This document shows, one piece after another, positions 21,585 to 37,913 of a DNA stretch of 44,815 bases. Under the pieces are notes generated by a model, which saw only the letters and a list, made by a program, of their open reading frames with translations, had not been told where the DNA came from and made no database searches. The DNA is from Candidatus Saccharimonadales bacterium (GTDB taxonomy: Bacteria > Patescibacteriota > Saccharimonadia > Saccharimonadales > UBA10212), in the NCBI GenBank assembly GCA_040900055.1, contig JBBDZU010000003.1:1-44815 (forward strand), read 5' to 3'. The stretch's first letter is position 1. Each line of letters starts with the position of its first letter. Made by a program: the position numbers and the translations under genes.

Positions 21585-21605
21585 TTGGTAGTTTGTAGTT
21601 TATAG
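21576..21605. repeat. Heptad repeat AGTTTG TAGTTGG TAGTTTG TAGTTTA TAG (site 3 of 4); left arm of the inverted repeat around the four-helix-bundle gene
   Basis: Direct reading. About 25/30 complementary to 21972..22007. Confidence 0.65.
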
Positions 21606-21613
21606 TGACGGAC

Positions 21614-23087: not shown

Positions 23088-23211
23088 TATACCATTTTTA
23101 TTCGCACCATTTAGATACTTCTACTTAAGCGATTAACAACTACAGACACGTGTTTGTCTATTTGTCCATATATGCATAGAGTAGTCAATACCTATGCAAT
23201 AACACCGATAA

Positions 23212-23553: not shown

Positions 23554-24009
23554 CTACTGGTCGGTTTGACCGCTGCTTGTGCCGCTGCCGATATTTAGAG
23601 GGGCTATGTTAATGACCTTATCAATTGCTGGGCGGTAAAGAACAGCCAAACGAGCCTGGGTGTAGATTAAAACTTTGTCGCCGTTTTCTGCCTTAGCAAA
23701 GAATGTCTGGCTCTTTAGTTTAGAGACGTCGCTAACGGTCGCCAAAGTTGGCGTCTCGTTAGCCGGCAAAGCTACCAGCTTGCTAACTTTTGCCACTGTT
23801 TGGTCCACGGCGGCACGGGCGGCTGCCTGGGGGTCGCTGGCTAATCTGTCGGCCTCATTTTGGGCTTGCACCCATTTAACGGCAAAGAAGACCGCCAAAA
23901 CGACAATTATTAACGTGGCAAGTGACGCCCACAGGCGGCGGCGAGTCATCCGCCCGTTTTTATCAGTCATCGGGTTCCAGTTGTTAAATCTATTGATATC
24001 TGCGCTCAA
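23554..24009 (-). CDS. N-terminally membrane-anchored hypothetical protein (last gene of the surface cluster)
   Basis: 151 aa. RRRLWASLATLIIVVLAVFFAVKWV is a single TM helix; a small extracytoplasmic domain follows. Confidence 0.55.
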   Translation of the reverse strand: MSADINRFNNWNPMTDKNGRMTRRRLWASLATLIIVVLAVFFAVKWVQAQNEADRLASDPQAAARAAVDQTVAKVSKLVALPANETPTLATVSDVSKLKSQTFFAKAENGDKVLIYTQARLAVLYRPAIDKVINIAPLNIGSGTSSGQTDQ

Positions 24010-24073: not shown

Positions 24074-24712
24074 CTATTGATTACGAGGATAGAGCCGGAT
24101 GGTAGCAAAGTTAAAGCCGTCAGATTCTAGCCACAAATTACCCTCGTTGGCCGGGTCAAAAAGATCAATTACTTGGCGGTTTGCTAAACCAATGGGGGCC
24201 GTTTGAGTCTTAAGCAAAGCCGGGCTGACATCACTCATAGTATTTTGATTATTAACTCTTATAAAAGTGCCTGTTGGGCAATAAGCCACGTATTCGGTGT
24301 CCCGCTGGCAATTGCGCAGTAATAGCTCTTTGCCATCATCGCCCTGGTATCTTACATAAACGTCGTATGTTCCGGCGGGCACAGACAACACCCGCCCAAC
24401 GCCATCAACAGAAAAACTGTTGGCCTTTTTCGCAAATACCTTTTGATTAGCCGCTTTAAGCTGAACCTGACGCGGGCCAACGTCATTTAACGATTGTCCT
24501 TGCACCAACCCCGCTTCAAAATAAGATCCTGCCAGTTTATTTCCAGCTTTGCTGGAAAAACTAACACCGTTTGAATTTGAATTATCTAGTAGCGAATTAC
24601 TTTTTAAACTAAAACCGCTCAGCGCCGCTGTGCCGCTGATTGCTGTACCCAGCACTACTCCCAGAACAATCAAACCGCGGCGGGAAGACAGCTTCCGTCG
24701 CCTGGGGAGCAT
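24074..24712 (-). CDS. Secreted or membrane-anchored hypothetical protein
   Basis: 212 aa. Basic N-terminus plus hydrophobic segment (RRGLIVLGVVLGTAISGTAAL). Start is 4 nt from the stop of the upstream gene. Confidence 0.55.
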   Translation of the reverse strand: MLPRRRKLSSRRGLIVLGVVLGTAISGTAALSGFSLKSNSLLDNSNSNGVSFSSKAGNKLAGSYFEAGLVQGQSLNDVGPRQVQLKAANQKVFAKKANSFSVDGVGRVLSVPAGTYDVYVRYQGDDGKELLLRNCQRDTEYVAYCPTGTFIRVNNQNTMSDVSPALLKTQTAPIGLANRQVIDLFDPANEGNLWLESDGFNFATIRLYPRNQ

Positions 24713-24715
24713 AGA

Positions 24716-25924
24716 TCAGGAGTCGCCTTTAGCGAAGTAGATGTCGGTACCGGTCTCGGTCGGGTTAGTTTGTTCCCAAACAATGTAAAACCGGTTGCCT
24801 ACATGTACTAAAGCCGGCTCGCGCGCATTACGCGCCGGCCCGCCTATTGGGTCCGGACGATTCCACCTAGAGCCGCCGTTTTTAGACTCTACGGAGAAAT
24901 TCTGATTAAACTGAGTACCGCCGCTAAAAGATTCTTCACTCCAAGCCAGCGAAACTTGCCCGCCCTTAGGGGCAGACAGCGTCGGCCCGGAAGAAATAGT
25001 GGCAGGGTCGGCAGAACGATTTGCAACCAGCTCAAAACTGGCTCCGGCATTTAGCGAGCGTCGCCAAAAAATGTCGCCGCCGGAAGCATAACGGGTTTCC
25101 CACGCTACATGCACTCGGCCGCCGCCGTCAATAACAGCTGTTGGCTCTATTTCTACATCTGTAGAAGTTGTCATCCGCTGGGCGGGGCTAAAGGTGGCCC
25201 CACCATCCGCAGAACGGGAATAATAAATCCTGGAACTGCCCTGCCAAGCGATATGGATGGCGCTGGTGTTAGCCACAACCACCGGATTAGTGTCAAACCG
25301 AGTCTGGTTAGAGATATTCTTAGGTGTCTCAAAGCTACTGCCGGCATCATTGGATTTGGCATAATAAATTTCGCAGTTTGAGGGGCATTCAGTCCAGGCT
25401 ACATGCAATCTGTTACCGCCCAGGTCTTCCTCTACATATATATTGGCGGCAAAAGAACTGGCGGCACTGTTGCTAACATTGGTCACTGCCGACCAGTTAA
25501 GCCCATCGTCAACCGAGCGAGCGTACATTATGTCCACTTGGCTGCCAAACTCATGCCAAGCCACATGCACTTGATTGCTTTTGTCGGATGCCACCGAGAT
25601 AGAAGGTTCTAAAGAAGTTACTCCCGGGCTATTAGAAATGTTTACTGGTGCCGAAAAGGTTACTCCATTATCGGTTGATCTGACATAGTAAATTTCTCTG
25701 TCTGTCTCGCTGCCCGAGCCGTCGTATAAAGTGGCCGCCCAAACTACATGCACCAAATTGTCACCCGCCACGGCTATTGCCGGGTTGTGGCCTTCTATCA
25801 AATCGCCCGAAATTTTAAGCGGTGGTGCAAAGGTTGCCGCCAGCGCCGTGCCAGGAAAAGCCAAAATCAACATTGCAGCAACTAGTGTGTATACGGCCCT
25901 AAAGAAAGTTGGCATAAGCGTCAT
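24716..25924 (-). CDS. Secreted BNR/Asp-box repeat protein (sialidase-like six-bladed beta-propeller)
   Basis: Signal peptide MTLMPTFFRAVYTLVAAMLILAFPGTALA. Four canonical Asp-boxes (STDNGVTF, SVDDGLNW, SNDAGSSF, SADGGATF) and two degenerate ones (SLNAGASF, SKNGGSRW). Each blade carries an (V/L/I)H(V/I)AW strand. Confidence 0.75.
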   Translation of the reverse strand: MTLMPTFFRAVYTLVAAMLILAFPGTALAATFAPPLKISGDLIEGHNPAIAVAGDNLVHVVWAATLYDGSGSETDREIYYVRSTDNGVTFSAPVNISNSPGVTSLEPSISVASDKSNQVHVAWHEFGSQVDIMYARSVDDGLNWSAVTNVSNSAASSFAANIYVEEDLGGNRLHVAWTECPSNCEIYYAKSNDAGSSFETPKNISNQTRFDTNPVVVANTSAIHIAWQGSSRIYYSRSADGGATFSPAQRMTTSTDVEIEPTAVIDGGGRVHVAWETRYASGGDIFWRRSLNAGASFELVANRSADPATISSGPTLSAPKGGQVSLAWSEESFSGGTQFNQNFSVESKNGGSRWNRPDPIGGPARNAREPALVHVGNRFYIVWEQTNPTETGTDIYFAKGDS

Positions 25925-25959: not shown

Positions 25960-28512
25960 TTAATTGCCTATAGCGGTACCGCCTACGATATTAGTGCCGC
26001 CCTCTATTCTTACTTCTAATGAAGCCGTCGTAAAACTAAAAATAGCCGAACTTGAGCTAAATATGTTAGAACCCCCAGGATCAATCGCATAAGCTCGCCA
26101 CCAATACTGAGTATTAGGGTCCAAAGGGGGATGAAGATAACGGTGCATTGCCATCGTTGATCCGCTAATTGTTGAGGAGCCAGTATATGCACTCCCGATT
26201 TGCTGGTCTTGGTTAAACCAGCCGCTTTGTGAATCGACCTGATTAATAGTTCTAACAATTGACGAACAGTTGCTAGTAGAACAAACGTCGATTTTGTACT
26301 GCAAGTAGTCATTATCGGCATCAGTGGTTCGCAGTTGAAATTCCGGCCTGGTCGTAAGGTTTGTAATCGTATCAGCCGGTAGTGAAAGAGTGGGGGCCGC
26401 CGGAGGACTTTGAGTATCTCCTACCGTAGCTGTAGGATATTCACAAACTGCCGACGAGCCATTCTTGGTGCAACTGCTCTGCTCTGTTCCACTCGTATTT
26501 TTTATCTGGTACCGTAGCAAAGGATTTAGGTCGGTTAAGCTACCGCCGCTGGCACTAGCGCCAAGGTCATAAACTCTAAAATAATATGTGCCGGCTGAAG
26601 CGCCATTGTTCTGAAGGGTATAGTCGTACTCTCGCACTGTGCTTGCTGAATGGTCAGAGTTAGCAGCAGCAGCCGTGCCGTTTTCCACGGCATTCCCATT
26701 AGCGGTAGAGCCTGTCAAAAGGCTTGATGGCACAGCCGCATCGTCTGTCAGCCCGCCGTCGGCATAGCGCCAGGCCGTGCCACTGCCTTGTGCTCCTACG
26801 TCAGTCCATGTGCACGAAAGTGAATCAGGGCAGCCAGCTCCGGTGCTGTATTGCAGTTTTTTCCTCGTATCTGTCTGGCTCATGCCGCCGGCTTCTTTTA
26901 GGTTAAATCTGAGTCTAACACTGTTATTATTTGAAATGGTCGCAGTTGTGCTTTCAGCGGCTAAAGCTGTGGTTGGATTACCAGCCGTAATCTCGTCATC
27001 GTACCAGCGCCAGTTCATACTCCAGGCCGCGTATGGTTTGTAGGTAAACGACCAGGCTCTTTGGGCGTGCTGTGTGTTGACGCTACAGCCTGAAGTGGTT
27101 GTAATTGTCGAGTTCTCCATGTTGGTCGAAATTAATGATTCAAAACTGCTGCCGCCCCACTCCTGGGCACGGATGGCACAGTCAATATCGTCTTTTATAT
27201 TCATAATTTCATCTGAATTAGGAGATGCAAAAAGCTGGTGCCCATTGATTGTATCGACATTATTTCCGGTTGCGTTGAACCATCCACTGAAACCGGTGCC
27301 GTTCGTCCAAGTGTTATAGCTATTTGCCAGAGTACCCGTAGTAACGAACAAGGCTTGAGGAGTGCCGGTGTTGGCCTTCTCCCATGCCACCGATAAATTT
27401 TCTCCAGTTAGGTTGGGGGGAGCTTGATCAGAGCCGCTGGTCCAATCTGCGGTAGAACCATCGGATTTCCAAATCCTCGGAGAGACATTTAATCCGAAGC
27501 CCGCGAGAGTTTCCTCCCAACCATCAAATAGGGCGATGCGATTGCTAAGTGGATGTGAAGCTAGCTTAACCCAATACCAGTTGTAGTCATCTTCGATACC
27601 GCCTAGTCCTACTACAATGGAAAGTGCCCCACCCCACCCCACCCCAGTTGAAGTCCGATACAACAAAGTTCCGGCGTTAATAATAGAAAAATATTCTCCA
27701 TATGTGATCATGGCTGTACCCGACAGTGTTTCCCAGGCAACGTCGAATGGTCTAGTTGTAATTGAGGAAAGATTCGTGCTAACGACTTTGTCATCAGTGG
27801 TCGACCAAGCAGTGCCGGTCCAGCGTGTTACATAAAGGTCATTGTTCGTATCCGAGACAGCTAATAATATTTCGTTACTGCGCTTGTCGCCCATTTGTTC
27901 ACCGTAGGCGGCTAGTTTTACCCACCTAGGACTACCTGTAAGTGAAGTTGTGCCGTCGTTTAGTGTTATGTCATTCGTACCGTCCGTTGGCGCGCAGTTA
28001 CTGACCGGCCCCCAGGAAGTACCATCATACAGACAGTAATAGAGCTTCCCCGTAACGCCATTACTGCCATAAACCACCATGGCACGACCCGATTGTTGCT
28101 CATAGGCAATATCAAAAGCTTGGGTGACAGTGTTAGTGGGAAGCACCGTGGTGTTCCACTGGGAGGTCATGTCTCCCGCAGCACTACAGGCATCCACACA
28201 CTTTAGTATATCCAGCCGTCCGTCCGCTTTTTGTTGGCCGATAATTTTTTCCTGCCTCATGGGAGCAGCTTTAGCTGCTACAAACTGGATGGCACTTGAT
28301 GTGGTTGAGGTGCCATTAATTTCACTTCCCATCGAGCCAGGGGATCCGGAGGTATAAGTTTGGAATTTTTGTTGACCAAGATTGGCAGCATCTCCATAAA
28401 AATGCACCCCGTCATTATTCACAGCAGCTTGGATGTGCGGCAGGAAATACCATAAAAACATCCCAGTGATCGCAAAAGATAATAAAATCGTAAGCTTGCG
28501 GCGTAGCTTCAT
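25960..28512 (-). CDS. Large secreted or anchored protein: Trp/Tyr-rich propeller-like repeats plus C-terminal Ig/FN3-like domain
   Basis: ATG at 28512 (MKLRRKLTILLSFAITGMFLW) has GGGAG 7 nt upstream and lies 1 nt after the giant gene's TAA. The track start 28533 overlaps that gene by 20 nt. C-terminus reads ...TRPEFQLRTTDADNDYLQYKIDV...YWWRAYAIDPGG. Confidence 0.7.
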   Translation of the reverse strand: MKLRRKLTILLSFAITGMFLWYFLPHIQAAVNNDGVHFYGDAANLGQQKFQTYTSGSPGSMGSEINGTSTTSSAIQFVAAKAAPMRQEKIIGQQKADGRLDILKCVDACSAAGDMTSQWNTTVLPTNTVTQAFDIAYEQQSGRAMVVYGSNGVTGKLYYCLYDGTSWGPVSNCAPTDGTNDITLNDGTTSLTGSPRWVKLAAYGEQMGDKRSNEILLAVSDTNNDLYVTRWTGTAWSTTDDKVVSTNLSSITTRPFDVAWETLSGTAMITYGEYFSIINAGTLLYRTSTGVGWGGALSIVVGLGGIEDDYNWYWVKLASHPLSNRIALFDGWEETLAGFGLNVSPRIWKSDGSTADWTSGSDQAPPNLTGENLSVAWEKANTGTPQALFVTTGTLANSYNTWTNGTGFSGWFNATGNNVDTINGHQLFASPNSDEIMNIKDDIDCAIRAQEWGGSSFESLISTNMENSTITTTSGCSVNTQHAQRAWSFTYKPYAAWSMNWRWYDDEITAGNPTTALAAESTTATISNNNSVRLRFNLKEAGGMSQTDTRKKLQYSTGAGCPDSLSCTWTDVGAQGSGTAWRYADGGLTDDAAVPSSLLTGSTANGNAVENGTAAAANSDHSASTVREYDYTLQNNGASAGTYYFRVYDLGASASGGSLTDLNPLLRYQIKNTSGTEQSSCTKNGSSAVCEYPTATVGDTQSPPAAPTLSLPADTITNLTTRPEFQLRTTDADNDYLQYKIDVCSTSNCSSIVRTINQVDSQSGWFNQDQQIGSAYTGSSTISGSTMAMHRYLHPPLDPNTQYWWRAYAIDPGGSNIFSSSSAIFSFTTASLEVRIEGGTNIVGGTAIGN

Positions 28513-28513
28513 C

Positions 28514-31500
28514 TTATTGCTCCCTGTCCTCATCGCTTAGAGTAACTGCCGCATTTTTAATCGCCGTGGCTAGCCAGCTAAAGTTAATGTCCTCGGTTGC
28601 GGTTTTGTTCAGGTAGATGGTAAAGCCGCTGGCAGTCACATTGCCGACGGCGTAGCTATAGCCGCCTTCAACTAATCTCTGCTGCTTAGCTTCGGCGGTG
28701 TCTGCGCCGTCGGCGGAATCTTCCAGTTCAAAGTTGGCAACCACAATCGGTGGCTGCTCGTATGGCGAGCTGAATTTAATTTGCACTTTGGCGGCGCCTT
28801 GTTTAATTACGGCGTGGCCGCCGGCGTCTTTGTTAAATACCGCCCGTCCGTAGAAGTTAACCAGGTCGTTAAAGTCGGCTCGGCCTCTGAACTCAGCCAG
28901 CGCCATAAAGACGGACTTGCCTTTAAACAAAGCATCGCCGGTGACGGTTAAGCCGCCTTGGGTTTCCAGTTGACCAAGAGTAGTTAAGCTAACAGCCGTC
29001 ACCGGGCTGTCAAAGCTTACTTTAGTTAAATCAACTTCTTCTGGAGCGCTGTTTTGACCGGCAGCGGAATCGTCGGTTGGGACGCTACCTTCTGCCAAAG
29101 AATCAGTTTTTGTCTCCAAACTGGATATTTTACCGGCAAGAATCTCCAGCCCTTCAATCTGGTTGGCTTTAATCTTATCGGCATAAAGAGTACCCCTGAC
29201 GTACACGTCGTGATCAAAGACCGCGTCCTCACCAATAGCTGCCAAGAAATTTATCAAACCATTCTGGGCGTCCAGAGTGCCCAAGTCAGAAGTGATTGGT
29301 GGAGCATCCTTTATGTCTGAGTCATAAGGAACCTCCGTCGTAGCACTAGGATTAGACTGGCTGTTGACGGGGGGATCATCAGTCCAGACTCGGAAGTAAT
29401 CAATCTGTAAATCAAAGGACGTACTCACGGTAGTGCTAATCATTGCAGCCACTCCAAGGGCTGACGTAACGCCGCTCGGGTTGGCCGTCCCGCAGTCGGT
29501 AAAATTGATCCCGTTCGAGATATCAGGGTCTACCTTGAACCGAACCACCGTCGAACTCTCCACAATCATTTCAAGTAGGGCAAACTGGGTCGTCGAAACG
29601 GCCACTCCACACGCGACATCAATATTTGATCCGCTAGCGGGATTGACTCTGCCTACCCAGTTACCACCATCGGCGTTAGTAAAGTAGACGCCCTCTGCTG
29701 GCTCAGCATTAGTGGTATGGTTACCCCAAAGGCCCACCCAGGTATCGCCATCTGCCGCTGCCCGTGTAGGTTTGGCTTTCACCAGTGTCCGCGGAAGATT
29801 CGACACGCTTGTAATAAGCGATGAGTTGCCGATAGCAGTCCCCATGAAGATTAAACAACCGGTAGAAGCAGCGGAATTGAGACGTGCGTAACTTACCGCC
29901 CCCTCTATCACGCCAAAGGTGCAAGCAGTAATCTCATCAGTTTTCCAGCGCTGGTCATCACCAAATACCAAGCTCTCAGCCGTCGAGTTTGCAATCTCAA
30001 AATTAAAATCTTGGCTGAAGTAGCCGTCATAAGACACGAAGCCGCGTGTACTCCGGGCAAAGCCGTATTTATTGACGCCAAAAATTTCTGAACCTAGGTC
30101 ATCTTCAATCGTGAGTGGCAGACCGCCATTCGCGATCTGAGAGACATCTACTACTATCTTTAAACCATTTCCTGTATAGGCACCCGCGTCGGCGGCGTCC
30201 ATAGTGATCTGCAGGCCGTCGCCGGCGAACGTGCCGCCGGTAGCCGGATTTACTGTAAGTTGCAATAAATCCAAAGTATGAGCAGCATTAGAGGTTTCAG
30301 TAATTACAACTGGTACCCCGCCAGCAGTTTCAATGGTGGCCCCGGAATCGTAGGCGGTTTGTAAACTTCCGCCTCCGCAGCCGGTACAAGAAGCCACAGT
30401 TAGAGCGCCAGCTGAAGTTAAGCTGGCGTTAGTGAACGAGAATATGTTGCTACCTGCTGTAGTGCCGCCAATCAATGTGTCCCAGCCAGTACCTATATTT
30501 AGGGCTACTTCGGTTACGTTTGCATTTCCGCCGCTGAGGTTGGCAATGTCTATGCCTCGTAAAATGTCACTGTCTGCGCCAGTATCCACTGAAGTTACGT
30601 CTATATTAAGGGCCGAAACAGTATCGGCGGTCGCATCATTCCCCAGCGTCAGGTTAATATCCTGCAAAGAACCGGTGTTGGTGACCGTACAGCTGCTGCT
30701 GCAGAATTTAAAGTTGCTATCATCGTCCAAAGCCAGCACCAAATCACCCGTACCGCCAGGCGTTATTGTGACATCTGAATCGGTACCTGATTGGATAGTG
30801 ATTGGCCCGGAACCAGTGCCGACCCTAACCGTACCGGCAGAGGCACTATAAACGGCTTCGCCGCTTTCGTATTTAATCAGCGCGTAATCGGTTGGCGAGG
30901 CAATGTTTTCAAAGATTCGAAGTTCACTGGATGAAGTATTAAAGGCCAGACCGTTATTGCCGCTGGCATCCTGAATCACAAACCCCGTTGTGCTATCGCC
31001 GTCGGCTTTAAACAGGAATTCAGTGGCACTGCTTGGCTGAATGGTCAGCATGTTGTCGCCGTTGCTTTGGATTTCGAACTTACTGGTTGAGCCAGTGGCG
31101 ATATTGAACAGAAAATCAGGATCAGTTGCCACGTCTGGAGCGTTAATTACCAAGTTTTTACCAGTGGCCAGATCAATCGTGGCTGGGCTGGTGGAGTTAT
31201 TATAGACCTCTTGGAGTGTGGCAGAACCGGCACCGCCTGTATCAAGGTCAGTGACTGTACCGTTTTGGCATTTTTTCAGTTTTCCGTCGGTAGAATTAGC
31301 CCAAACCGCGTACAAGCCGGCACCGCAGGTTGGGTTGCCGGCCTCTTCGGTAAATTCCAGATAGTCATTGCCGCTAGCGTTACCGATGCTAACTAACTCG
31401 TCAAAGGCAGAACTGCCCATAACGGTGGTTAAAGCGCCGGCTTTGGAAATATTCACGGCATTGGCGTTAGTAGTTCCTATATCTACGTTGGCCGCCCCGC

Positions 31501-34500
31501 CAGCATCGACCGTCAGGATATTAGCGCCGCCAGATGAAACTGTTAGAGCTCCGCTACCCGTATAGCTTTGCCCGGCAGCTACAGTTACCGTCCCGGCATT
31601 CGAAACGTCAAAGTTAGTGGCATTAATTAGATTAGTGAATGTGCCGGTGAAGGTTAAACCATTGGTGATAGCCCCGGCAGTTCTAATAATTTCAATACCG
31701 TTTGTTAAAGTACCCGTCCCAGTTTGTCCTACTATAAGCCCGGAAGTTACCGTTTCGGCAGCGTTAGCATTGTTTAGATAAGCCAGTGCTGTTGGCACTC
31801 CAAAGTTGGCGCCATTATCAGTGTTGGTAACTGATAAGCCATAGCCATAGCTACCACCAACAATCTCATTATGCGTTAAGTTAATGGCTAACGATGTTTC
31901 AGACGCGGCTCCCGTATAAGTAGAGTTTAACTTGACATTGGAGTCGTCATCTAAAGTAAAAATAGCATCGCTAGCACCATTAGGTTGTACAGTGACCCCG
32001 CCACTATCATCGAACGTAGCAAAAGCAGTTCCGCCGTCACGAATTTCAAAGTCTGCGGTACCGCTTAAGTTGAACCAAACATCTCCTACGTCGGTGCCGC
32101 CGGCTGTCACTTGAAGTGGTGAGGCGGTTGAGGTAGCTAAAGTTACTAACTCAAGCAGGGCTTGCTGGTCCTGAGTACCGGAGGTCGAGGCGCTGGATTC
32201 TGAGATTGTTAGCCCTGAATCTATAGCCGCACTTGTAAAGTCCCAGTTCCAGAAGACGGAGTTAGCATTTGAATCTTGGGCAGTGCCTTCGCCAGTCGCG
32301 GCGGTAATTTGATCCAAGCGCGTAGTAGTGGAATTATCATCCGCTGCACAGGCCCAGCCGCCGGCATCGGTCCACTTAAGCAGTTCGTTGTCGGCACAGG
32401 TTTCAATCATTGACAGGCCGCTGGCATCAACCTGCAGGCCGGTGGCGACCGCCAGCGAGTTGCCCAGGTCAAGAGTGATGGAATCAGCGGCCGCTGTAAT
32501 GCCATCGCCAGCGCCAACCGCTAGAGTTGGCGTAGAACCTTCGCCGCTGGCATCACCGGTGAGACCTGCCCCAGCTGTGATGGTAGCTACATAGTCGTTA
32601 CTCGTTTCGCTACCCAGCGCAATACCGTCATCCAGGGCATTTAATTCAGCGGCTGAAATAAATGTGCCGTTATTGTCAAAAATATTGTCCCAGTTGGCCC
32701 CTATGCGAAAAGCATTGGTAGTACCGGTCGGATTGGTTATGCCGGCTATGTCAATTGCCGACACTCTGTCGCCGGCTTCGGTAGCTCCGGCCGGGTCAAC
32801 CACCAGCCGTATACCGGCGTTATCCCTATCACCGACTGCCGCGGCAGTCACCAGATTAATCTGCAGGCCATCTACCTGATCAGTAACCGTACCCTGCCCG
32901 CTGTTAGAAGCCAAAATTAAGTCGTTAACAGGTGCTGTAGGTGCTGTAACGTGCAGAATAGCGCTGGGCGTGGCCGTACCGATGCCTACTAAGCCGCCGT
33001 TCTGCTGCAGGATAATGTAGCCTTTGGAAACATTGGCCGTGGAATCCAGAATCAAGTCCTCGCCGGCAGCCGTACCACCAAAGAGTGATTGCCCGCCGCT
33101 GCGGCCGGCCAATAAGGCGTATTGGCTGTGATCGTCATCTGCCAGCCCGGACAGCGCGCCGTGATCGGTAACCACCGAGCCGCTAAAGAAGGTTTCAAAG
33201 GCCGTTTCCACCCTGGAGGCACTAGCGGCGTTTTTTTGGAACAATACCCGACCGATCAGGGTGGATAGGTCGCTGATACGTTCCGGCACCGCGGCCGGCG
33301 CGTTAGCATCCTGGGCTTCGGCCAAGCTGGAATATTGATTTTGATCATAAACAGACAGCAGCTTGCCACTATTTTGGACATAGAACCATTGGGCTGAGTA
33401 GTAATTATCAGTTAAGGTCGCGAGCGTACCGGAGCCATCGTCATATTGAGTATTATTCCACTGGGTTTGGGCGGATTCTTTAATATAGCCGCCAGAGCCG
33501 TTGCGGTAGTAACGGTCAAAAGTATCAGTGCCTGAAGTGTCGATGGCGGCAATGTCAAATTCGTTTAGCCGGTCCCATAATTTTCCGGCGCTGACCGTTA
33601 GGTTGCGGGTGCCGGTTTCGCCTATGATCAGGCCACCGGTTCTTTTGTCGCGCACAAAGGGGTTGGTGCCGTAAAAACGCTCGATAACGTTGGTAGCTGC
33701 GTCGCCCGTCCACTGCGGATTATTGGTAATGTGCAGGGTGCCGCCTTCGTTAATCACGACTCCCAGCGGGAATTCGGTGTCATAATCCCAGGTGTCGGCG
33801 GCCTTTATAAATACCTGAGGTGAACCGGCGTTATATTGAACACCGACGTATCGTTTGCTGTTAGCCGGAATGGCTATGCCGCTAGCGGCTGCCCAGTCAA
33901 AGAACTTCAATTCGGCTATGTCGTCGTCGGTTGCCCTAATTAACCCTGTGCCGGCGCTGACGTTTATGTTACCGCTACCGGCATCAGTAATAACTCCGCC
34001 GGTAATTCGCCCAGGTGAAGGCACTTGATTAAAGAAATGCTGCAGGGTGGAATATGTCGAGCCGGCCACGCGTGTCAGCGGAATAGCGTTCCAGGCGGCG
34101 ATTGATTGGCCGGCTAGCTGAAAATTGGTAGCCGTGGCAGTGCCGGCTATGTCGGCACTGCCGTCGACTTCTAGTCCGCCTTGGACAAATAGGTCGTTAT
34201 CATCGGCTACCAAGCCGCTGTTAGCACTGCCGCCACTGTTGGCAATGGCGTTATAGGTTAGGCCGGCAGCCACGCCGCCGATTGCCAATACATCACCGTC
34301 ACTAAATATAATATTGCCCAACCCGGCATTTAAGGTCAAATTGCCAGCCGCGCCCGAAGCTAATGTTAGCCCTCCGGCGCCGGTGATATTACCGGTGTTA
34401 GTCAGATTACCGCTGGTATCAATCCTCAAACCGGTGGAATTTAAGCTAAAGGTATCTAGATTATCGATGCTGCCCAGGGTAATAGTGTCCGCTCCGGCTT

Positions 34501-37500
34501 CATTAATAAGTACCGAAGCGTTAAAGGTATGGTCAGCCGTCCAGGTAAAAACAAAATCCTGGTCAACCCTTACGGCATCACCACTGATCTCCAGGCCATC
34601 GCCGGTTGAAACATCCAAGGCATCGCCGTTGGCGGCTAAGCCGCTACCGGCTAACGCCGTTTCATCAATATTAAAGGTAACAGTATCGTCAGCTGAGCCG
34701 TTAATAGTTAAGTTAGTGCCACTGGCGGCCAGTACCAGGGTATCTGTAGTAGAATCCGCAACGGCGTCAGTACCGCTAACATCTATGGTGGTGAAGGCGT
34801 TGCCGTGGGTGTCGGTATCAGTGTCTACATCTGGCTGGCAAGCCCAGACGTCGGAGGTCTCATTCCACTTGAGGATTTCAGTGTCACCACAGCCCTGCAG
34901 CAAAGTCAAACCGCCAGCCAGGATTTCCATACCTGAGCCGGAAGAAGTAGTAGTGCTAAGCGCATTACCGCTAGCTTGCAAGGTTAAGGCAATGTCATCG
35001 GTATTAGCGACTATTCCTCCGTTGGCGGATACTATATTAATAGTAGGAGTACTGCCCTCGCCTGTGGCGTTGCCCGTTAAACCGGCGCCAGCCGTGAAGG
35101 AAGCTACATAATCATTGGTGGTGTCAGCGCCCAGAGCGACAGCATTCAAACCAACAGTTAACCCAGCACTAAAGGAGCCGGTTATGTCGCCGGTCGCCGG
35201 TGATTCACCGACGTTTACGTATACCGGATCAAGCGTGCCGCTGTAATTAGCACTAGATAATAAAGTACCGCTGCTGCCGGACAGCGTAAAGGTGCTGTCG
35301 GCCGCTAAATCACCGACGTCCAAAATCGCGAAGAAGCTGGGCGAAGCACCGCTTTCTAGAAGTTTTAATTCGCTGCTGGAATTATTTAAAACAATGTCAA
35401 AAGCGCCGGTTTGGCTCCAATCGGCGCTCAAGGGCCCCAGAGCTACAGCGTCCGAACTTATCTGGATACCGTTACCGGTGGTAATGTCCAAGCCATCTAC
35501 ATTTGCTACCAGCCCGGCGCCGGCTAAGACACTCTCTACTAGATTAAGAGTAACTGTATCCGTCGCTGAATCGCCGGTAATCGTCAGATTAGTGCCGCTA
35601 GCGGCCAAATTGAGCGTATCGGTTGAACTGTCGGCTACCGGATCAGTGCCGGCCGGCGTATTGATAGTTTCAAAGGTGTTTGCCCCGCCGCCACCAGCAT
35701 TATCAGAAGCACATCCCCAGCTAAAGCCGGTGTTGTCCCATTTTAGAACGTCGCCTTGGGAACAACCACGGAGCAACGAAAGTTCACTGCCAGCCAGCTC
35801 AAGTCCCGAAACTGAAGATGCTGTCGCTCCGTCAGCGGCTGTGGTATCTAATTTAATTTCTATAGTATCAGCATTAACGGCAATTCCGTTACCTGCGCCT
35901 ACCGCCAAGGTTGGAGTACTGCCCTCGCCGGTAGCATTCCCGGTCAAACCGCCGCCAGCTGTAAAGCTAGCTACATAATCATTAGTGGTATCAGCGCCCA
36001 AAGCCACAGAATTGGGGTCAATCGTCCAGATTGTGCCCGAACCCGAAACACTAATATCTCCTTTATCGCCATCAGAAACTCCTCCACCTCCGCCACTGTT
36101 GTCATCAGTACTACAAGCCCATGCCGAACTGTTCCACTTAAGAATTTCGCCGGAACTACAGCCGCCGATAAGACGCACTCCGTTGCTTGAAACCTCTAGT
36201 CCGGAGTTTGAGTCAAGCGTTGTTGTGGTTCCCGTTGTTAATATATCTACAGCTATGCTGTTGTCGGCGAGGCTGATACCTTCTCCCGCGCCCACCTTGA
36301 TAGTAACAGCGCCTTTATCGCCGCCTCCAGCCAGACCATCTCCGGCTATAATCTCCGTTATTGATGATCCTGTTGTAGTATTTCCATCAATCTTTATACC
36401 AGCGGCCAGTTTCTCAGAAGTGATCGAGCCGTCAGCAATGTCCTCTGTTGTAATACTCGCATCAATTATGTCTGTTCCGTCAATGGGCAGTATAGCTAGG
36501 TCGCCGTTTTCATTACCTGGCTCCCGGCCGTCTACGAAATCGCTATTTAAGTTCACTATCAACCCTTGATCCTCAAGCGCCAGCTTATCGCTGTCAAAAT
36601 ATAATGTATAAAGCGGCTGGACTTTGCCTTGGGCATCAGGCTGAAACACCTGGTTAACATCTGCAAACTGCAAATTTCTAGTAGCCACGGCATACTTTTT
36701 GTCATCTATCAGGTTAACGAATAGTAGTGACAGCTTTACCAGCGGCCTAAGATCGTCCTTCCAACCCCTGTGGTCTACATACTTTAAGCCGTTGTCTACT
36801 TTAAGGCCCGTATTAATCTGGGTAGTAGCTGATTTAACATCAGCACCTTGGTCTCCAGGAATAAGCGACAAGCCAAAAGTTTTGGCTGTCGAACTGGGAT
36901 TTATAAGAAAAGCCGCGGTTAAGGCGATAATAGCTGCCCCGAGCGGGATCAAAACTACTCCCAATATCCCAAAGCCAAGCAACACCCTTCTGCGCAGCCG
37001 ATGAATATTTGTATGGTGTTCGGTTACCAGATGGCGAACCGCCAGCCCCGTCCCCGGCTGCTTCTCCGTAGGTTCTTTGTCTTCATCTGCGGTTTGAAGC
37101 GCTTCTTCCAAATTAGAAGCTTTGAGCGGTTCCAAAACCTCTTCCTCGATTTCTTTTTGGCGGATAAAGTATTCGGAGTTTAAGAACTTCTCTAGGGTTT
37201 TGCGATCGTAACGGCGCTCGTTGTGCCCGTTTCTTATGGGTGATATTAAACCTTTACCCTCCAGCCTGCGTAGTGTAGAAGACGAGATCTTCAGCATTTT
37301 GGCGGCTTCGGAAATGCTAAGCGGCTGATTTAGCTTAGCTCTTTCCAGCTCCTCGATGGAGAAGTATCGATTCTTGCCGTCAGGCCGCGTAGATTTTAAG
37401 ACGCCAGCTTTGTCCCAACGTCTAACTGTATCAATCGAAACACCCAATATAGCAGCTGCCTGGCTAATAGAAACCAGGCTCTTAGACTTTGCGTCGCCAT

Positions 37501-37612
37501 TTAGGCCGTTTGTCATTTTTAGGTTTTTGTTATTGTTTCTAAGCTTAGAACACGTTTTTGTATATATAATGTGTTCAAGGATAAGTGTAGCAATATGCTT
37601 ATGCCTATGCAA
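28514..37612 (-). CDS. Giant (~3,000 aa) single-pass membrane protein: two N-terminal MerR-type HTH domains, one TM helix, then a repeat-built extracellular fibre ending in ConA-like and H-type-lectin-like domains
   Basis: A single uninterrupted ORF; the likely ATG is at 37516 (MTNGLNGD). HTHs at aa ~46-92 and ~98-145 (nt 37178..37477). TM helix at nt 36905..36988. Four Cys-bracketed LKW modules. C-terminal IDYFRVW jelly-roll end and an H-lectin-like tail. Confidence 0.85.
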   Translation of the reverse strand: MHRHKHIATLILEHIIYTKTCSKLRNNNKNLKMTNGLNGDAKSKSLVSISQAAAILGVSIDTVRRWDKAGVLKSTRPDGKNRYFSIEELERAKLNQPLSISEAAKMLKISSSTLRRLEGKGLISPIRNGHNERRYDRKTLEKFLNSEYFIRQKEIEEEVLEPLKASNLEEALQTADEDKEPTEKQPGTGLAVRHLVTEHHTNIHRLRRRVLLGFGILGVVLIPLGAAIIALTAAFLINPSSTAKTFGLSLIPGDQGADVKSATTQINTGLKVDNGLKYVDHRGWKDDLRPLVKLSLLFVNLIDDKKYAVATRNLQFADVNQVFQPDAQGKVQPLYTLYFDSDKLALEDQGLIVNLNSDFVDGREPGNENGDLAILPIDGTDIIDASITTEDIADGSITSEKLAAGIKIDGNTTTGSSITEIIAGDGLAGGGDKGAVTIKVGAGEGISLADNSIAVDILTTGTTTTLDSNSGLEVSSNGVRLIGGCSSGEILKWNSSAWACSTDDNSGGGGGVSDGDKGDISVSGSGTIWTIDPNSVALGADTTNDYVASFTAGGGLTGNATGEGSTPTLAVGAGNGIAVNADTIEIKLDTTAADGATASSVSGLELAGSELSLLRGCSQGDVLKWDNTGFSWGCASDNAGGGGANTFETINTPAGTDPVADSSTDTLNLAASGTNLTITGDSATDTVTLNLVESVLAGAGLVANVDGLDITTGNGIQISSDAVALGPLSADWSQTGAFDIVLNNSSSELKLLESGASPSFFAILDVGDLAADSTFTLSGSSGTLLSSANYSGTLDPVYVNVGESPATGDITGSFSAGLTVGLNAVALGADTTNDYVASFTAGAGLTGNATGEGSTPTINIVSANGGIVANTDDIALTLQASGNALSTTTSSGSGMEILAGGLTLLQGCGDTEILKWNETSDVWACQPDVDTDTDTHGNAFTTIDVSGTDAVADSTTDTLVLAASGTNLTINGSADDTVTFNIDETALAGSGLAANGDALDVSTGDGLEISGDAVRVDQDFVFTWTADHTFNASVLINEAGADTITLGSIDNLDTFSLNSTGLRIDTSGNLTNTGNITGAGGLTLASGAAGNLTLNAGLGNIIFSDGDVLAIGGVAAGLTYNAIANSGGSANSGLVADDNDLFVQGGLEVDGSADIAGTATATNFQLAGQSIAAWNAIPLTRVAGSTYSTLQHFFNQVPSPGRITGGVITDAGSGNINVSAGTGLIRATDDDIAELKFFDWAAASGIAIPANSKRYVGVQYNAGSPQVFIKAADTWDYDTEFPLGVVINEGGTLHITNNPQWTGDAATNVIERFYGTNPFVRDKRTGGLIIGETGTRNLTVSAGKLWDRLNEFDIAAIDTSGTDTFDRYYRNGSGGYIKESAQTQWNNTQYDDGSGTLATLTDNYYSAQWFYVQNSGKLLSVYDQNQYSSLAEAQDANAPAAVPERISDLSTLIGRVLFQKNAASASRVETAFETFFSGSVVTDHGALSGLADDDHSQYALLAGRSGGQSLFGGTAAGEDLILDSTANVSKGYIILQQNGGLVGIGTATPSAILHVTAPTAPVNDLILASNSGQGTVTDQVDGLQINLVTAAAVGDRDNAGIRLVVDPAGATEAGDRVSAIDIAGITNPTGTTNAFRIGANWDNIFDNNGTFISAAELNALDDGIALGSETSNDYVATITAGAGLTGDASGEGSTPTLAVGAGDGITAAADSITLDLGNSLAVATGLQVDASGLSMIETCADNELLKWTDAGGWACAADDNSTTTRLDQITAATGEGTAQDSNANSVFWNWDFTSAAIDSGLTISESSASTSGTQDQQALLELVTLATSTASPLQVTAGGTDVGDVWFNLSGTADFEIRDGGTAFATFDDSGGVTVQPNGASDAIFTLDDDSNVKLNSTYTGAASETSLAINLTHNEIVGGSYGYGLSVTNTDNGANFGVPTALAYLNNANAAETVTSGLIVGQTGTGTLTNGIEIIRTAGAITNGLTFTGTFTNLINATNFDVSNAGTVTVAAGQSYTGSGALTVSSGGANILTVDAGGAANVDIGTTNANAVNISKAGALTTVMGSSAFDELVSIGNASGNDYLEFTEEAGNPTCGAGLYAVWANSTDGKLKKCQNGTVTDLDTGGAGSATLQEVYNNSTSPATIDLATGKNLVINAPDVATDPDFLFNIATGSTSKFEIQSNGDNMLTIQPSSATEFLFKADGDSTTGFVIQDASGNNGLAFNTSSSELRIFENIASPTDYALIKYESGEAVYSASAGTVRVGTGSGPITIQSGTDSDVTITPGGTGDLVLALDDDSNFKFCSSSCTVTNTGSLQDINLTLGNDATADTVSALNIDVTSVDTGADSDILRGIDIANLSGGNANVTEVALNIGTGWDTLIGGTTAGSNIFSFTNASLTSAGALTVASCTGCGGGSLQTAYDSGATIETAGGVPVVITETSNAAHTLDLLQLTVNPATGGTFAGDGLQITMDAADAGAYTGNGLKIVVDVSQIANGGLPLTIEDDLGSEIFGVNKYGFARSTRGFVSYDGYFSQDFNFEIANSTAESLVFGDDQRWKTDEITACTFGVIEGAVSYARLNSAASTGCLIFMGTAIGNSSLITSVSNLPRTLVKAKPTRAAADGDTWVGLWGNHTTNAEPAEGVYFTNADGGNWVGRVNPASGSNIDVACGVAVSTTQFALLEMIVESSTVVRFKVDPDISNGINFTDCGTANPSGVTSALGVAAMISTTVSTSFDLQIDYFRVWTDDPPVNSQSNPSATTEVPYDSDIKDAPPITSDLGTLDAQNGLINFLAAIGEDAVFDHDVYVRGTLYADKIKANQIEGLEILAGKISSLETKTDSLAEGSVPTDDSAAGQNSAPEEVDLTKVSFDSPVTAVSLTTLGQLETQGGLTVTGDALFKGKSVFMALAEFRGRADFNDLVNFYGRAVFNKDAGGHAVIKQGAAKVQIKFSSPYEQPPIVVANFELEDSADGADTAEAKQQRLVEGGYSYAVGNVTASGFTIYLNKTATEDINFSWLATAIKNAAVTLSDEDREQ

Positions 37613-37913
37613 GTGTTATTCAATACCTAGGCAGCCTATCTGTGTCGGCTTGCCACTTAGGTGTTACAGGGTACAGTTATCCACATATGCAAAGCTTAGC
37701 CAGGGGCTTTTGCCCGGCCTGAACCTATGCAAACATTGCTCAAATCGTTAAAAACCGCGCCTCACGACATGCTAAAAATATCAACCCGCTTGGTCCTGGC
37801 AACCCCTGTTTTGAACAACTCTTGCCTAGGTATGAGTAAGCCATCCAGCGTTATAAAAATGGTCAGGTGTGCGCGCCTAAACCAGCTTTGAACCTGATAT
37901 ATAATATAAAGAA

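Follow-up and report, generated by a model that had tools for sequence, protein, structure and literature searches.

A giant membrane-anchored surface fibre of a Saccharimonadales bacterium with two winged helix-turn-helix units, and a conserved box upstream of its gene that suggests self-regulation

The window analysed here is a stretch of 44,815 nt from a Candidatus Saccharimonadales bacterium (GenBank assembly GCA_040900055.1, contig JBBDZU010000003.1). It carries a giant gene that is chromosomal, in a cellular genome, with genes for rRNA, FtsZ and IF-2 nearby. The parts of this gene and the genes downstream of it are as follows.

28514..37516, minus strand: giant-protein coding sequence, 3,000 aa from ATG 37516, stop codon at 28514-28516
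37331..37471, minus strand: winged HTH unit 1, MerR/HTH_17 type (aa 16-62; recognition helix ...SIDTVRRWDK, wing RPDGKNRYF; from Pfam, AF2, Foldseek and invariant residues)
37175..37321, minus strand: winged HTH unit 2 (aa 66-114; recognition helix ...SSSTLRRLEG, wing RNGHNERRY; from Pfam, a SoxR HTH match, AF2 and Foldseek)
37091..37174, minus strand: conserved helix after unit 2 (aa 115-142; family motif FLNSEYF.RQKE.EE..LEP; from an AF2 model and conservation)
36902..36985, minus strand: single predicted transmembrane (TM) helix, preceded by RLRRRV, N-in (aa 178-205; from hydropathy, AF2 and charge bias)
36404..36901, minus strand: conserved juxtamembrane ectodomain common to giant-type family members (aa 206-371; alignment A1)
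33191..34057, minus strand: phage tail-fibre-like globular domain (aa 1154-1442; PHROG phrog_5668 'tail fiber protein', E 2.4e-48)
28565..28786, minus strand: C-terminal H-type lectin domain (aa 2911-2984; Pfam PF09458, E 1.9e-6, 28.3 bits against a cut-off of 24)
25960..28533, minus strand: 857-aa secreted or anchored protein, its start overlapping the end of the giant ORF by 20 nt
24074..25924, minus strand: BNR-repeat protein (402 aa) and 212-aa signal-anchored protein, oriented as the giant gene
23554..24009, minus strand: n151, a small single-pass membrane protein (TM and ~100-aa ectodomain)

An earlier note on this DNA had described a single uninterrupted ORF (28514..37612, minus strand; 3,032 codons counted from a TTG at 37612) with a probable ATG at 37516, and ORF calls and translation bore this out. 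Residues are numbered here from the ATG; the earlier note counted from the TTG, and its numbers are higher by 32. Such an ORF might also result if assembly or annotation had joined a small MerR gene to a distinct giant surface-protein gene, as giant repetitive genes are error-prone in metagenome assemblies, and closely related fibres without HTHs do exist. However, a separate Logan assembly contig, SRR27977660_5880 (35.9 kb), encodes the identical 3,000-aa protein, and dozens of independent genomes preserve the HTH-linker-TM-juxtamembrane region in collinear form, including the linker that joins the HTHs to the TM. With the plan of HTH-HTH-TM and large ectodomain recurring in many independent genomes, the fusion reading is essentially refuted, and the giant ORF is no assembly artefact. 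Its product is best read as a type-II (N-in) single-pass membrane protein with a cytoplasmic HTH pair and an extracellular fibre of ~2,800 aa.

The two MerR/HTH_17 domains that the same note had placed near the N-terminus were recovered by Pfam as two MerR / MerR_1 / HTH_17 stretches, aa 16-62 and 66-114 (E 7e-20, 1e-18 and 5e-16, all beyond the curated cut-offs), and AF2 and Foldseek gave winged HTH folds. Unit 1 was modelled at pLDDT >90, and unit 2 matched the SoxR HTH at E 1e-3. In Foldseek the units matched BldC, Xis and RacA at rmsd 1.0-1.8 A: each superposed on BldC (6ama/6amk) at 1.2-1.3 A with TM-scores of 0.74-0.79, and Pukovnik Xis (4j2n) at 1.0 A, with RacA (5i44) and the SoxR HTH also matching. 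Against the curated BldC model the giant protein scored 26 bits, below the cut-off of 77 bits. As modelled, each unit is a minimal BldC/Xis-like winged HTH of ~48 aa, without the MerR coiled coil or effector domain. Of the earlier suggestion that two HTHs replace the MerR dimer, the presence of two HTHs in one chain stood; because the units look BldC/Xis-like and lack a coiled coil and effector domain, a covalent BldC-like pair on repeated boxes appears to be the better analogy. The MerR DNA-contact residues were invariant or nearly so in 13-54 homologues, both in HTH1 (T30, R32, R33, W34, R44, G47, K48, R50) and in HTH2 (T81, L82, R83, R84, R95, E100, R101, Y103). An acidic disordered linker (aa 143-155) follows the helix after HTH2.

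The TM segment reached a Kyte-Doolittle value of 2.67, and a second TM is not predicted because the runner-up segment reached only 1.68. K and R residues flanking the helix numbered 4 on the N side versus 1 on the C side, and the N side was the more basic in 47 of 55 family members. One TM with cytoplasmic HTHs, proposed earlier from the positive-inside rule, is in agreement with these values, as is the description of the remaining ~2,800 aa as rich in G, A, T, S, D and N without a further hydrophobic segment, which composition and hydropathy upheld. The TM contains Gly and Pro and has a conserved outer end, LT..FL..P..T. The AF2 monomer model of the juxtamembrane region had low confidence. 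The fibre is probably trimeric, trimerisation being drawn only from tail-fibre homology, and the H-type lectin is likely its glycan-binding tip, through which it may bind glycans or a host.

The 20-nt overlap suggests that the 857-aa protein gene is probably co-transcribed with the giant gene, and together with the BNR-repeat and 212-aa protein genes the group looks like a surface-protein operon. By tblastn, n151 had matches beside or near a giant gene, mostly just downstream, in 13 loci, and its gene was also present at 4 of 4 giant loci without HTHs; n151 accompanies giant fibre genes with or without HTHs.

HTH-HTH-TM proteins are a widespread, uncharacterised family of Patescibacteria. In a collection with one genome per species (185,579 species), 347 of 600 pattern-matched stretches were confirmed as relatives, and E<=1e-10 was reached by 332 cluster representatives. 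The earlier note knew of no characterised example; our literature search likewise found no published characterisation, but the plan is no one-off. The genome survey which that note proposed found it in Patescibacteria genomes by the dozen, the ectodomain ranging in size from a small SH3 domain up to >3,700 aa. Automatic database names of the members are 'MerR family DNA-binding transcriptional regulator' and 'excisionase family DNA binding protein'. ORFs of at least 1,000 aa were present in 28 of 58 analysed loci, the complete ones measuring 2,491-3,119 aa. Short forms are SH3 proteins of ~300 aa with the same HTH-HTH-TM cassette and boxes, and one member, P0006, has four HTH pairs ahead of its TM, i.e. 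up to eight units. Close fibre homologues carry plain signal anchors instead of HTHs, and giants of equal size without HTHs exist. As the same cassette is also found on the small SH3 domain, fibre and HTH module are, by their sequences, separable cassettes. Fibre relatives contain collagen repeats, beta-helix and Peptidase_S74 domains.

The DNA upstream of the giant gene contains a repeated box, which has the following copies in the window.

37604..37631, minus strand: compact operator-like element CCTAGGTA-ttgaataacact-TGCATAGG, with 12 nt between its two boxes, 88-115 nt upstream of the ATG
37684..37732, minus strand: two further sense-strand boxes 40 bp apart, TTGCATATG (37684-37692) and TTGCATAGG (37724-37732)
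37823..37830, plus strand: opposite-orientation box TGCCTAGG, ~310 nt upstream of the ATG
23171..23199, minus strand: second box pair TTGCATAGGT-N10-CTATGCATA, ~85-110 nt upstream of a 101-aa coiled-coil ORF (22782-23087)

Five boxes fell in the 400-bp region upstream of the giant gene versus three in the other 44 kb, and the compact element has the same form as the family consensus. The box at 37823..37830 sits in the intergenic region common to the giant gene and a divergent DUF1801 gene. The pair at 23171..23199 may be another target of the same regulator.

Across the family loci the box, TGCMTAGG(T), was ~48-fold enriched upstream of family genes: the density of TGCMTAGG was 2.62/kb in the 430 nt upstream versus 0.054/kb in the rest of the loci, with 0.295/kb in other intergenic DNA and ~0.05/kb in Markov simulations. 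An unbiased 8-mer count of the upstream regions returned ATGCATAG, TGCATAGG and GCATAGGT as its top three, in 25-32 of 58 regions. The box often forms a palindrome of 28-30 bp, ACCTAKGCA-N12-TGCMTAGGT; both arms (at least 13 of 16 arm positions matching, exact 12-nt spacer) were found in 29 loci, whose consensus is a near-perfect 30-bp palindrome (alignment A3). The alternative form is direct repeats 11 or 22 bp apart, and the spacing of boxes in the same orientation has its peak at 22 bp, which is what two BldC protomers cover (PMC5859096). No strict box lay within 430 nt in 21 of 58 loci, and the 6-nt core was present in 54 of 58. When metagenomes were scanned blindly with the DNA pattern alone, the family HTH1 signature was encoded downstream of 19 of the 31 instances, the ATG usually 6 nt after the element, and the other 12 had no family gene following. 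No box was found in four related giant-fibre loci without HTHs (14-17 kb each): the box tracks the HTH cassette, not the fibre. DNA binding by the HTHs, as proposed earlier, is plausible in view of this association and the invariant contact signature.

The HTHs might instead be a protein-interaction module, with the palindrome acting as an RNA hairpin that sequesters the SD or as a binding site for some other regulator. RodZ shares the HTH-TM-ectodomain plan. Small soluble MerR_1 and HTH_17 genes are found close to short-form genes, and the boxes might be bound by a regulator other than the giant protein. The compact element shares part of its 3' arm with an SD-like AGG located 4-7 nt ahead of the ATG, and as RNA the palindrome can form a hairpin, which leaves room for a translational role. 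However, the 71.6% of cells that can pair do not exceed the 72.0% in shuffles, the palindrome showed no excess of RNA covariation and no Rfam match, and some boxes form phased direct repeats a long way from any start codon. The invariant MerR contact residues, a box that follows the cassette, and a window without a small MerR gene beside the giant gene further argue against this reading, which we consider very unlikely.

We favour, with a probability of about 0.55, a membrane-tethered, self-regulating DNA-binding fibre, whose own HTH cassette probably binds the conserved upstream box. The HTH-HTH cassette would bind repeated TGCMTAGG(T) boxes in its own promoter/5' region while membrane-anchored, and the number or state of fibres already in the envelope would feed back on transcription of the fibre operon. 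Our guess is that repression is the likelier sign, because the usual place of the element is downstream of the likely promoter and ahead of the start codon. With a cell diameter of only a few hundred nm, the nucleoid would be within reach of a regulator held in the membrane; ToxR and CadC reach it from the membrane in larger cells. The 12 blind instances without a family gene and the 21 family loci without a strict box weigh against self-regulation. If true, the surface fibre of an ultra-small (CPR/Patescibacteria) bacterium regulates its own gene.

A structural tether would use the same DNA contacts in another way: the cassette would anchor its own locus to the membrane, as RacA does, or hold the 9-kb gene at the translocon (transertion), the giant protein being made and exported co-transcriptionally rather than its transcription regulated. 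RacA (5i44) belongs to the closest structural matches. Boxes are concentrated at the 5' end of the gene itself, for instance in the non-coding leaders of 0.7-1.7 kb with 3-5 boxes at L008, L009 and L025, and the four HTH pairs of P0006 would suit array binding. Yet the cassette and boxes also occur with the SH3 forms of ~300 aa, whose export requires no special help, the HTH-less giants reach equal size, and the low box density outside promoter regions differs from RacA's many origin-proximal sites. A tether thus seems quite unlikely.

It is possible, though unlikely, that the fibre is a trans-envelope sensor of host or surface contact (by lectin tip, tension or oligomerisation) and controls a set of contact-dependent genes through release of the cassette by regulated intramembrane proteolysis or through altered DNA affinity. 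A link from cell-surface or host contact to DNA binding, direct or after proteolytic release, was the main idea of the earlier note. The topology resembles that of ToxR/CadC-type one-component regulators. The DNA-binding cassette is constant and the ectodomain varies from SH3 to giant fibre, as sensors vary in one-component systems; the Gly, Pro and conserved outer end of the TM point the same way, and boxes before other genes (the 12 of 31 blind instances and the second pair in the window) would fit a regulon. One short-form gene has a Peptidase_M50 gene 3 kb away, but this was seen in only 1 of 3 short-form loci examined, no protease was consistently linked and a cleavage motif was not found. 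We also know of no mechanism by which a signal would pass along a ~2,800-aa fibre through a single TM helix. Sensing is compatible with the self-regulating fibre and does not exclude it.

Among known systems, BldC of Streptomyces and Xis-type excisionases share the ~48-aa winged HTH without coiled coil or effector domain (rmsd 1.0-1.3 A). BldC protomers line up head-to-tail on 9-bp direct repeats, two to every 22 bp (PMC5859096), comparable to the recurrence of family boxes at 11 and 22 bp, although the BldC box, AATT-N4-C, differs in sequence. In contrast to BldC and Xis, the giant protein fuses two units (up to eight in P0006), is membrane-anchored and has an ectodomain. Canonical MerR, SoxR, CueR and BmrR share the HTH signature and fold and a palindromic operator, predicted in the family; the giant protein lacks their long dimerisation helix and C-terminal effector domain and is not soluble, and their operators lie in a 19-20-bp promoter spacer, a placement that is at most putative for the family element.

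ToxR / CadC / TcpP-type regulators bind DNA while membrane-anchored, and likewise lead from a cytoplasmic DNA-binding domain at the N-terminus through one TM to an extracytoplasmic domain. Theirs, however, is an OmpR-type winged HTH with a small periplasmic sensor, whereas the family has tandem MerR/Xis-type units and ectodomains from SH3 to a >3,700-aa fibre. CadC is also reported to be activated by proteolysis (PMC11484849). RodZ, too, has a cytoplasmic HTH, a single TM and an extracytoplasmic domain, but its HTH is Xre-type and binds MreB, not DNA, and the giant protein matched the RodZ HTH family HTH_25 in Pfam at E only 0.36. RacA, the Bacillus subtilis chromosome anchor, holds specific DNA sites at the membrane or pole with a MerR-like winged HTH, a role that is putative for the giant protein; unlike it, RacA is a soluble coiled-coil dimer that reaches the membrane via DivIVA and has many origin-proximal GC-rich sites. 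TraN of pIP501 (Enterococcus type IV secretion) binds double-stranded DNA and has two Xis/MerR-like HTH units per polypeptide (4p0y among the structural matches), but is soluble and small, and its units are arranged differently, as the poor overall superposition (rmsd ~11.5 A) indicates.

Eukaryotic MYRF is a membrane protein that unites a DNA-binding domain with a trimerising module derived from phage fibres (PMC3742443), and its Peptidase_S74 chaperone domain also occurs in fibre relatives of the giant protein. In MYRF the S74 is found on the same side of the membrane as the DNA-binding domain, which it sets free by self-cleavage, whereas the giant protein has no S74 domain and its fibre is on the membrane side opposite the cassette. 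With phage long tail fibres and giant CPR surface proteins, giant putative adhesins having been reported in Patescibacteria (PMC11809585), it shares the phrog_5668 domain and the H-type lectin tip; unlike them it is chromosomal and joins an N-terminal TM anchor to a cytoplasmic DNA-binding cassette.

The gene first described in the earlier note as one uninterrupted frame was recovered as such: 28514..37612 (-) holds 3,032 codons from a TTG. Its first ATG, at 37516, yields a protein of 3,000 aa, and residues are numbered here from that ATG (the earlier note's numbers are higher by 32). An identical 3,000-aa product was called on a separate Logan assembly contig. Since the same protein thus occurs in a second assembly, and the same plan in many other genomes, an artefact of assembly or annotation can hardly be credited. 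Both proposed MerR-type HTHs were found by Pfam, with MerR, MerR_1 and HTH_17 matching at aa 16-62 and 66-114, all above curated cut-offs; for MerR (PF00376 / PF13411) the two stretches reached 71 and 67 bits, where the cut-offs stand at 28.2 and 21.6. The N-terminal winged HTH with MerR signature was also seen in a match to the SoxR HTH in the PDB. NCBIfam placed an excisionase-family DNA-binding domain above its cut-off, and HspR, BldC, SoxR and CueR as partial matches below theirs. Aa 178-205 (nt 36902-36985) form the single strong hydrophobic segment, and as the next-best window scored 1.68 against 2.67 here, the protein has one TM helix, as had been suggested. It is flanked by four K+R on the N side and one on the C side. 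The N side is the more basic one in 47 of 55 family members, which bears out the cytoplasmic placement of the HTHs. A hydrophilic N-terminus of 175 residues without a signal peptide is expected to be retained in the cytoplasm, given the limits of N-tail translocation.

The profile and structure searches proposed for the N-terminal module matched MerR-like winged HTH units of a known DNA-binding type. An AlphaFold2 model of aa 1-215, built from 54 sequences, had a mean pLDDT of 84, rising above 90 across the HTH region. It contains two winged HTH units, each strand-helix-helix-hairpin-helix, followed by a 28-residue helix (aa 115-142), a disordered acidic stretch and a long helix that includes the TM. 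When each unit of about 48 residues was compared with the PDB by Foldseek, BldC superposed at an rmsd of 1.2-1.3 A (TM-score 0.74-0.79) and the Xis of mycobacteriophage Pukovnik at 1.0 A, with RacA and the SoxR HTH also among the matches; full-length MerR proteins aligned merely loosely. Among viral models they resemble phage excisionases and MerR-like HTH proteins. The modelled HTH units are accordingly assigned as minimal MerR-like winged HTHs of the BldC/Xis kind. Alignments of 13 and of 54 homologues show little or no variation at the residues of the MerR DNA-contact signature.

A survey for the same architecture had been recommended, and the HTH-HTH-TM plan does recur across Patescibacteria genomes. 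With an alignment of the first 371 residues as query and a collection of one genome per species, at least 347 of 600 pattern-matched stretches were confirmed as relatives, and the DNA of 80 loci was retrieved. ORF extension in 59 of these gave a uniform order, two HTH signatures and then a single TM at about aa 150-290. Nine genomes contained complete ORFs of 2,491-3,119 aa, and eight further ORFs exceeded 3,400 aa and were still open where the fetched DNA ends. The family also has short forms of 290-355 aa with a C-terminal SH3_3 domain. A phmmer search with aa 1-215 against 1.84 billion cluster representatives returned 332 matches at E<=1e-10; 43 of the best 150 measured at least 1,000 aa, the longest 5,145 aa. 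Close homologues all came from Patescibacteria MAGs, namely Microgenomates (such as Woese-, Levy-, Davies- and Chisholmbacteria), Saccharibacteria and Andersenbacteria, certain records carrying plainly wrong bin labels. Their database names are automatic ('MerR family DNA-binding transcriptional regulator', 'excisionase family DNA binding protein', 'fibronectin-binding autotransporter adhesin'), and the architecture was not found in the literature on membrane-bound MerR regulators, giant Patescibacteria/Saccharibacteria proteins with HTH, or Southlakia Tn-seq.

The cytoplasmic end varies among database relatives. One of 623 aa (P0006) has eight winged HTH units, that is four pairs, ahead of the TM. 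Some giants of 3,800-4,500 aa (P0143, P0151, P0154) carry a lone MerR HTH with the TM at about aa 80, and others (P0153, P0180) a different HTH type with the TM at about aa 165-172. These variants (single MerR, third HTH type, eight units) suggest that DNA-binding N-termini on giant CPR surface proteins evolved repeatedly.

A short word, TGCMTAGG(T), here called the box, recurs ahead of the gene, and three more boxes lie elsewhere in the 44.8-kb window.

Boxes within 400 bp upstream of the ATG
37604 and 37724: box TTGCATAGG
37626: box TGCCTAGG
37684: box TTGCATATG
37823: inverted box copy

Across 58 homologous loci, the commonest repeated 9-mer in many upstream regions was a variant of the box word. 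Upstream regions totalling 24.4 kb contained 64 copies of TGCMTAGG (2.62/kb). Its density was 0.054/kb in the other 777 kb of the loci, 0.295/kb in intergenic DNA elsewhere and close to 0.05/kb in Markov simulations. Of the 58 loci, 37 had one strict box or more and 54 had the 6-nt core. In an unbiased 8-mer count the top words, ATGCATAG, TGCATAGG and GCATAGGT, appeared in 25-32 of the 58 upstream regions and outnumbered every A/T-rich 8-mer. A compact form with two arms and an exact 12-nt spacer, ACCTAKGCA-nnGnwTAAnCAA-TrCmTAGG, was found in 29 loci; its consensus, ACCTATGCATTGGTTAACCAATGCATAGGT, is a nearly perfect 30-bp palindrome. Often 4-7 nt separate its end from the start codon, but the window's own copy (37604-37631) lies about 90 nt upstream of the ATG. 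Direct box repeats 11 or 22 bp apart were seen in four loci (L004, L005, L008, L030), and boxes dispersed in non-coding leaders of 0.7-1.7 kb in three (L008, L009, L025).

Several further features accompany the box. In seven loci labelled Saccharimonadia, Saccharibacteria or unclassified Patescibacteria (L011, L022, L040, L048, L050, L051, L053), the variant ACTATGCATAAGCTTTC(TTAAC) replaces the 30-bp palindrome. Many family genes (e.g. L012, L109, L098, L100) begin with the peptide MPKSLPK, coded by ATGCCTAAATCCCTGCC and conserved at the DNA level; as similar sequence follows the element even where there is no ATG (L087, L088, L105), the cis element may reach into the first codons. A second palindrome, TTGTCAA-N3-TTGACAA followed by TATAATA, precedes the box element by about 60-100 nt in the Microgenomates loci L003, L006, L013, L016, L023 and L029, and CTTGACAA occurs in 16 of the 58 upstream regions; the palindrome could be a promoter or another regulator's site. 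Within the window, a second box pair of the TGCATAGG type, TTGCATAGGT-N10-CTATGCATA, lies at 23171-23199 (-), about 85-110 nt upstream of a 101-aa coiled-coil ORF without family match (22782-23087 (-)), which could be a further target of the same regulator.

When a metagenome collection was scanned by the DNA pattern alone, 31 instances were obtained in 30 contigs, and 19 of them had the family's HTH1 signature encoded downstream, usually with the start 6 nt past the element. Given only a handful of family genes per genome, this association between box and family gene is very strong. In the remaining 12 instances a different ORF follows, in several cases one for a membrane or secreted protein, and a small regulon is suggested by this. 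At four loci whose giant-fibre genes are closely related in the ectodomain but lack the HTH cassette, 14-17 kb of DNA per locus contained no strict box, and 450 nt of upstream sequence contained no core box. The box therefore tracks the DNA-binding cassette, not the fibre.

A different reading is that the HTHs do not bind DNA, or that the element works as RNA. A hairpin masking the SD is physically possible. However, a 13-pair hairpin on 29 aligned elements was 71.6% paired against 72.0% in column-preserving shuffles, covariation equalled the shuffle mean with more than half of the sequences unpaired at variable positions, and Rfam gave no matching family at the element, its lone spurious miRNA match falling far below the gathering score. 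Together with the near-invariance of the DNA-contact residues, these results make this alternative very unlikely. Sequence rather than pairing is conserved, which favours a predicted protein-binding DNA site. A sigma-54 promoter reading of GG-N-TGCA was discarded, the GG-to-GC spacing being off by one base and the second G not conserved in column counts. Scanning the upstream region for promoters and terminators turned up weak consensus matches only, and no promoter is assigned.

Outside the membrane, aa 1154-1442 resemble the phage tail-fibre family phrog_5668 (E 2.4e-48), and an H-type lectin scored above the Pfam cut-off at the fibre tip (aa 2911-2984). By regular expression, a Cys-loop motif, L.LL.GC..G.ILKW......W.C, occurs in four copies along the chain; self-BLAST for internal repeats gave no repeat alignments. 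No PDB entry was matched by the sequence of the 2,795-aa ectodomain, and an AF2 monomer of aa 150-470 (TM and juxtamembrane domain) had a pLDDT of 62, too low for a fold search. Searching with the ectodomain only returned 77 other giants of 1,590-4,736 aa, with collagen repeats, beta-helix, H-lectin and Peptidase_S74, the endosialidase intramolecular chaperone. By sequence, this domain set is the repertoire of trimeric phage fibres. The MerR cassette is found in only about a quarter to a third of these relatives, and in a few, one MerR HTH alone or an HTH of another type precedes the TM. The closest have a plain signal anchor at the N-terminus; their 54-57% identity applies to the best local alignment, which spans 22% of the query.

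The giant gene heads a same-strand run. Its stop is overlapped by 20 nt by the gene of an 857-aa secreted protein, followed by a BNR-repeat protein, a 212-aa anchored protein and a 151-aa single-pass protein (23554-24009 (-)). Synteny of the first three was not kept in other loci, and the 151-aa protein alone is conserved: in 13 loci it is encoded next to the giant gene or close by, mostly directly downstream, and it also lies downstream of all four HTH-less giants. Its presence with the latter marks it as a partner of the fibre, not of the HTH cassette, and it may serve in fibre assembly or anchoring. It consists of a basic N-tail, a TM and an ectodomain of about 100 aa, without a Pfam match; the loci encoding it are the window, L117-L120 and the 13 others. 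The short SH3 forms head glycosyltransferase/methyltransferase clusters, with a divergent HTH_17-PIN pair and a small soluble HspR-like MerR gene upstream. An overlapping gene comes after them in every case, encoding a multipass membrane protein of about 210 aa with a Tat-signal-like DKRxFLK motif and no relation to the 151-aa or 212-aa proteins.

Genes of the ~210-aa multipass protein behind short SH3 forms
L082, 6908-7531
L084, 6986-7630
L086, 6948-7628
and 10 other loci

The window further encodes IleRS, class II RNR, FtsZ/FtsA, PriA, IF-2, S1 and a 5S/23S rRNA locus, as a cellular genome does, and its origin is most probably patescibacterial. A prophage origin was rejected on account of these housekeeping and rRNA neighbours.

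Other features of the window
43186-43300: 5S rRNA
43632-44815 (-): 23S rRNA, 3' 430 model positions spread across 1,184 nt, about 750 nt more than the model
44006-44608 (-): 200-aa LAGLIDADG endonuclease ORF inside the 23S gene
21605-21916 (+): small ORF of the '23S rRNA intervening sequence protein' family PF05635 (gene table of locus L001)
23250-23501 (+): 83-aa GIY-YIG ORF between the surface operon and the next gene
40300-40360 (+): intergenic GC-rich inverted repeat gcaggctgctccgctcagcctgcctgccggcaggcaggg, ahead of ORF 40428-40850

Owing to the excess length and the internal ORF, the 23S gene is read as carrying an rRNA intron with a homing endonuclease; such introns are common in CPR bacteria. 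The PF05635 and GIY-YIG ORFs hint at mobile or selfish elements, and the gcaggctgctccgctcagcctgcctgccggcaggcaggg repeat may be a terminator or structured element.

We favour, with a probability of roughly 0.55, autoregulatory DNA binding, by a membrane-anchored, sequence-specific protein that would preferentially target the promoter region of its own gene. The HTH-HTH cassette would bind there while anchored in the membrane, making the surface fibre autoregulated. The sign would more readily be repression, because the compact element sits between the likely promoter and the start codon. If the fibre trimerises like its phage relatives, six winged HTH units would be gathered beneath each fibre, which suits box arrays. 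The earlier note's idea of contact sensing with release, in which host contact, clustering or proteolysis modulates binding, appears unlikely, and a structural DNA tether more so. A broader proposal, which we put forward tentatively and consider doubtful, is a class of DNA-coupled fibres: a lectin-tipped fibre of several thousand residues would be linked through one TM helix to a cassette on its own promoter, so that host engagement, by clustering, tension or cleavage, would be read at the DNA without a diffusible intermediate. Alternatively, retention of the gene at the membrane would couple its transcription with translation and export.

A large part of bacterial diversity belongs to the Patescibacteria, which live attached to host cells, and to our knowledge almost nothing is known of their surface regulation and host sensing. 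The family offers a concrete candidate regulator-operator pair: the DNA-binding cassette is conserved over the deep lineages sampled (Saccharibacteria, Microgenomates, Andersenbacteria), the box spans only 9 bp, and both are tied to the proteins likeliest to contact the host. If the protein binds the box, it would be, as far as we found in the literature, the first membrane-tethered regulator with MerR/BldC units, and a way into fibre regulation in hard-to-culture organisms. The box can be used to predict regulons straight from metagenomes, and an annotation rule follows for giant CPR proteins, in which the HTH cassette pairs with the box and the fibre with a small partner like the 151-aa protein.

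Compared with known systems, the giant protein is not a canonical MerR regulator. Canonical members have a long alpha-5 coiled-coil dimerisation helix and then a C-terminal effector-binding domain. Of the earlier MerR-regulator reading the HTH signature and fold stood, but the coiled coil and effector domain are absent, only a helix, an acidic linker and the TM following HTH2; scores against the NCBIfam equivalog models SoxR, CueR, MerR and HspR fall far below cut-offs. The canonical operator is a palindrome within the 19-20-bp spacer between -35 and -10; the compact element, which in many loci ends 4-7 nt ahead of the ATG, does not seem to be placed in that way. BldC proteins are stand-alone winged HTHs of about 50-70 aa without dimerisation and effector domains, and bind direct repeats cooperatively, head-to-tail. 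Two BldC protomers cover 22 bp (PMC5859096). The fold is alike, but the curated model (NF033787) gave 26.2 bits against a cut-off of 77 and the units here are fused and tethered; same-orientation boxes lie 11 and 22 bp apart, whereas many loci have inverted pairs instead. TraN of pIP501, a tandem Xis-like protein, was among the Foldseek matches with poor superposition. ToxR-like one-component regulators share the layout of cytoplasmic N-terminal DNA-binding domain, single TM and extracytoplasmic C-terminal domain. Their OmpR/PhoB winged helix (Trans_reg_C) is absent here, where Pfam found MerR and HTH_17 only; the protein would thus work by analogy with ToxR/CadC while lacking the domain that defines that family. 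RodZ, whose Xre-type HTH_25 binds MreB, is set apart by an HTH_25 match below cut-off (E 0.36) and by its periplasmic domain DUF4115, which Pfam did not find. Tail-fibre homology and a C-terminal receptor-binding type of domain (the H-lectin) are shared with phage tail fibre-like proteins, and relatives of the giant carry Peptidase_S74 and collagen domains. Such phage proteins form homotrimeric fibres in virions or prophages; the genes around this one serve cellular housekeeping or the cell surface, and none codes for a phage structural protein. Judged by sequence, the protein is best described as a putative membrane-tethered one-component regulator, assembled from minimal MerR-like units in tandem and carrying a giant ectodomain of the phage-fibre type. 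This architecture, uncharacterised so far, is widespread in Patescibacteria, and a candidate operator for it is now available.
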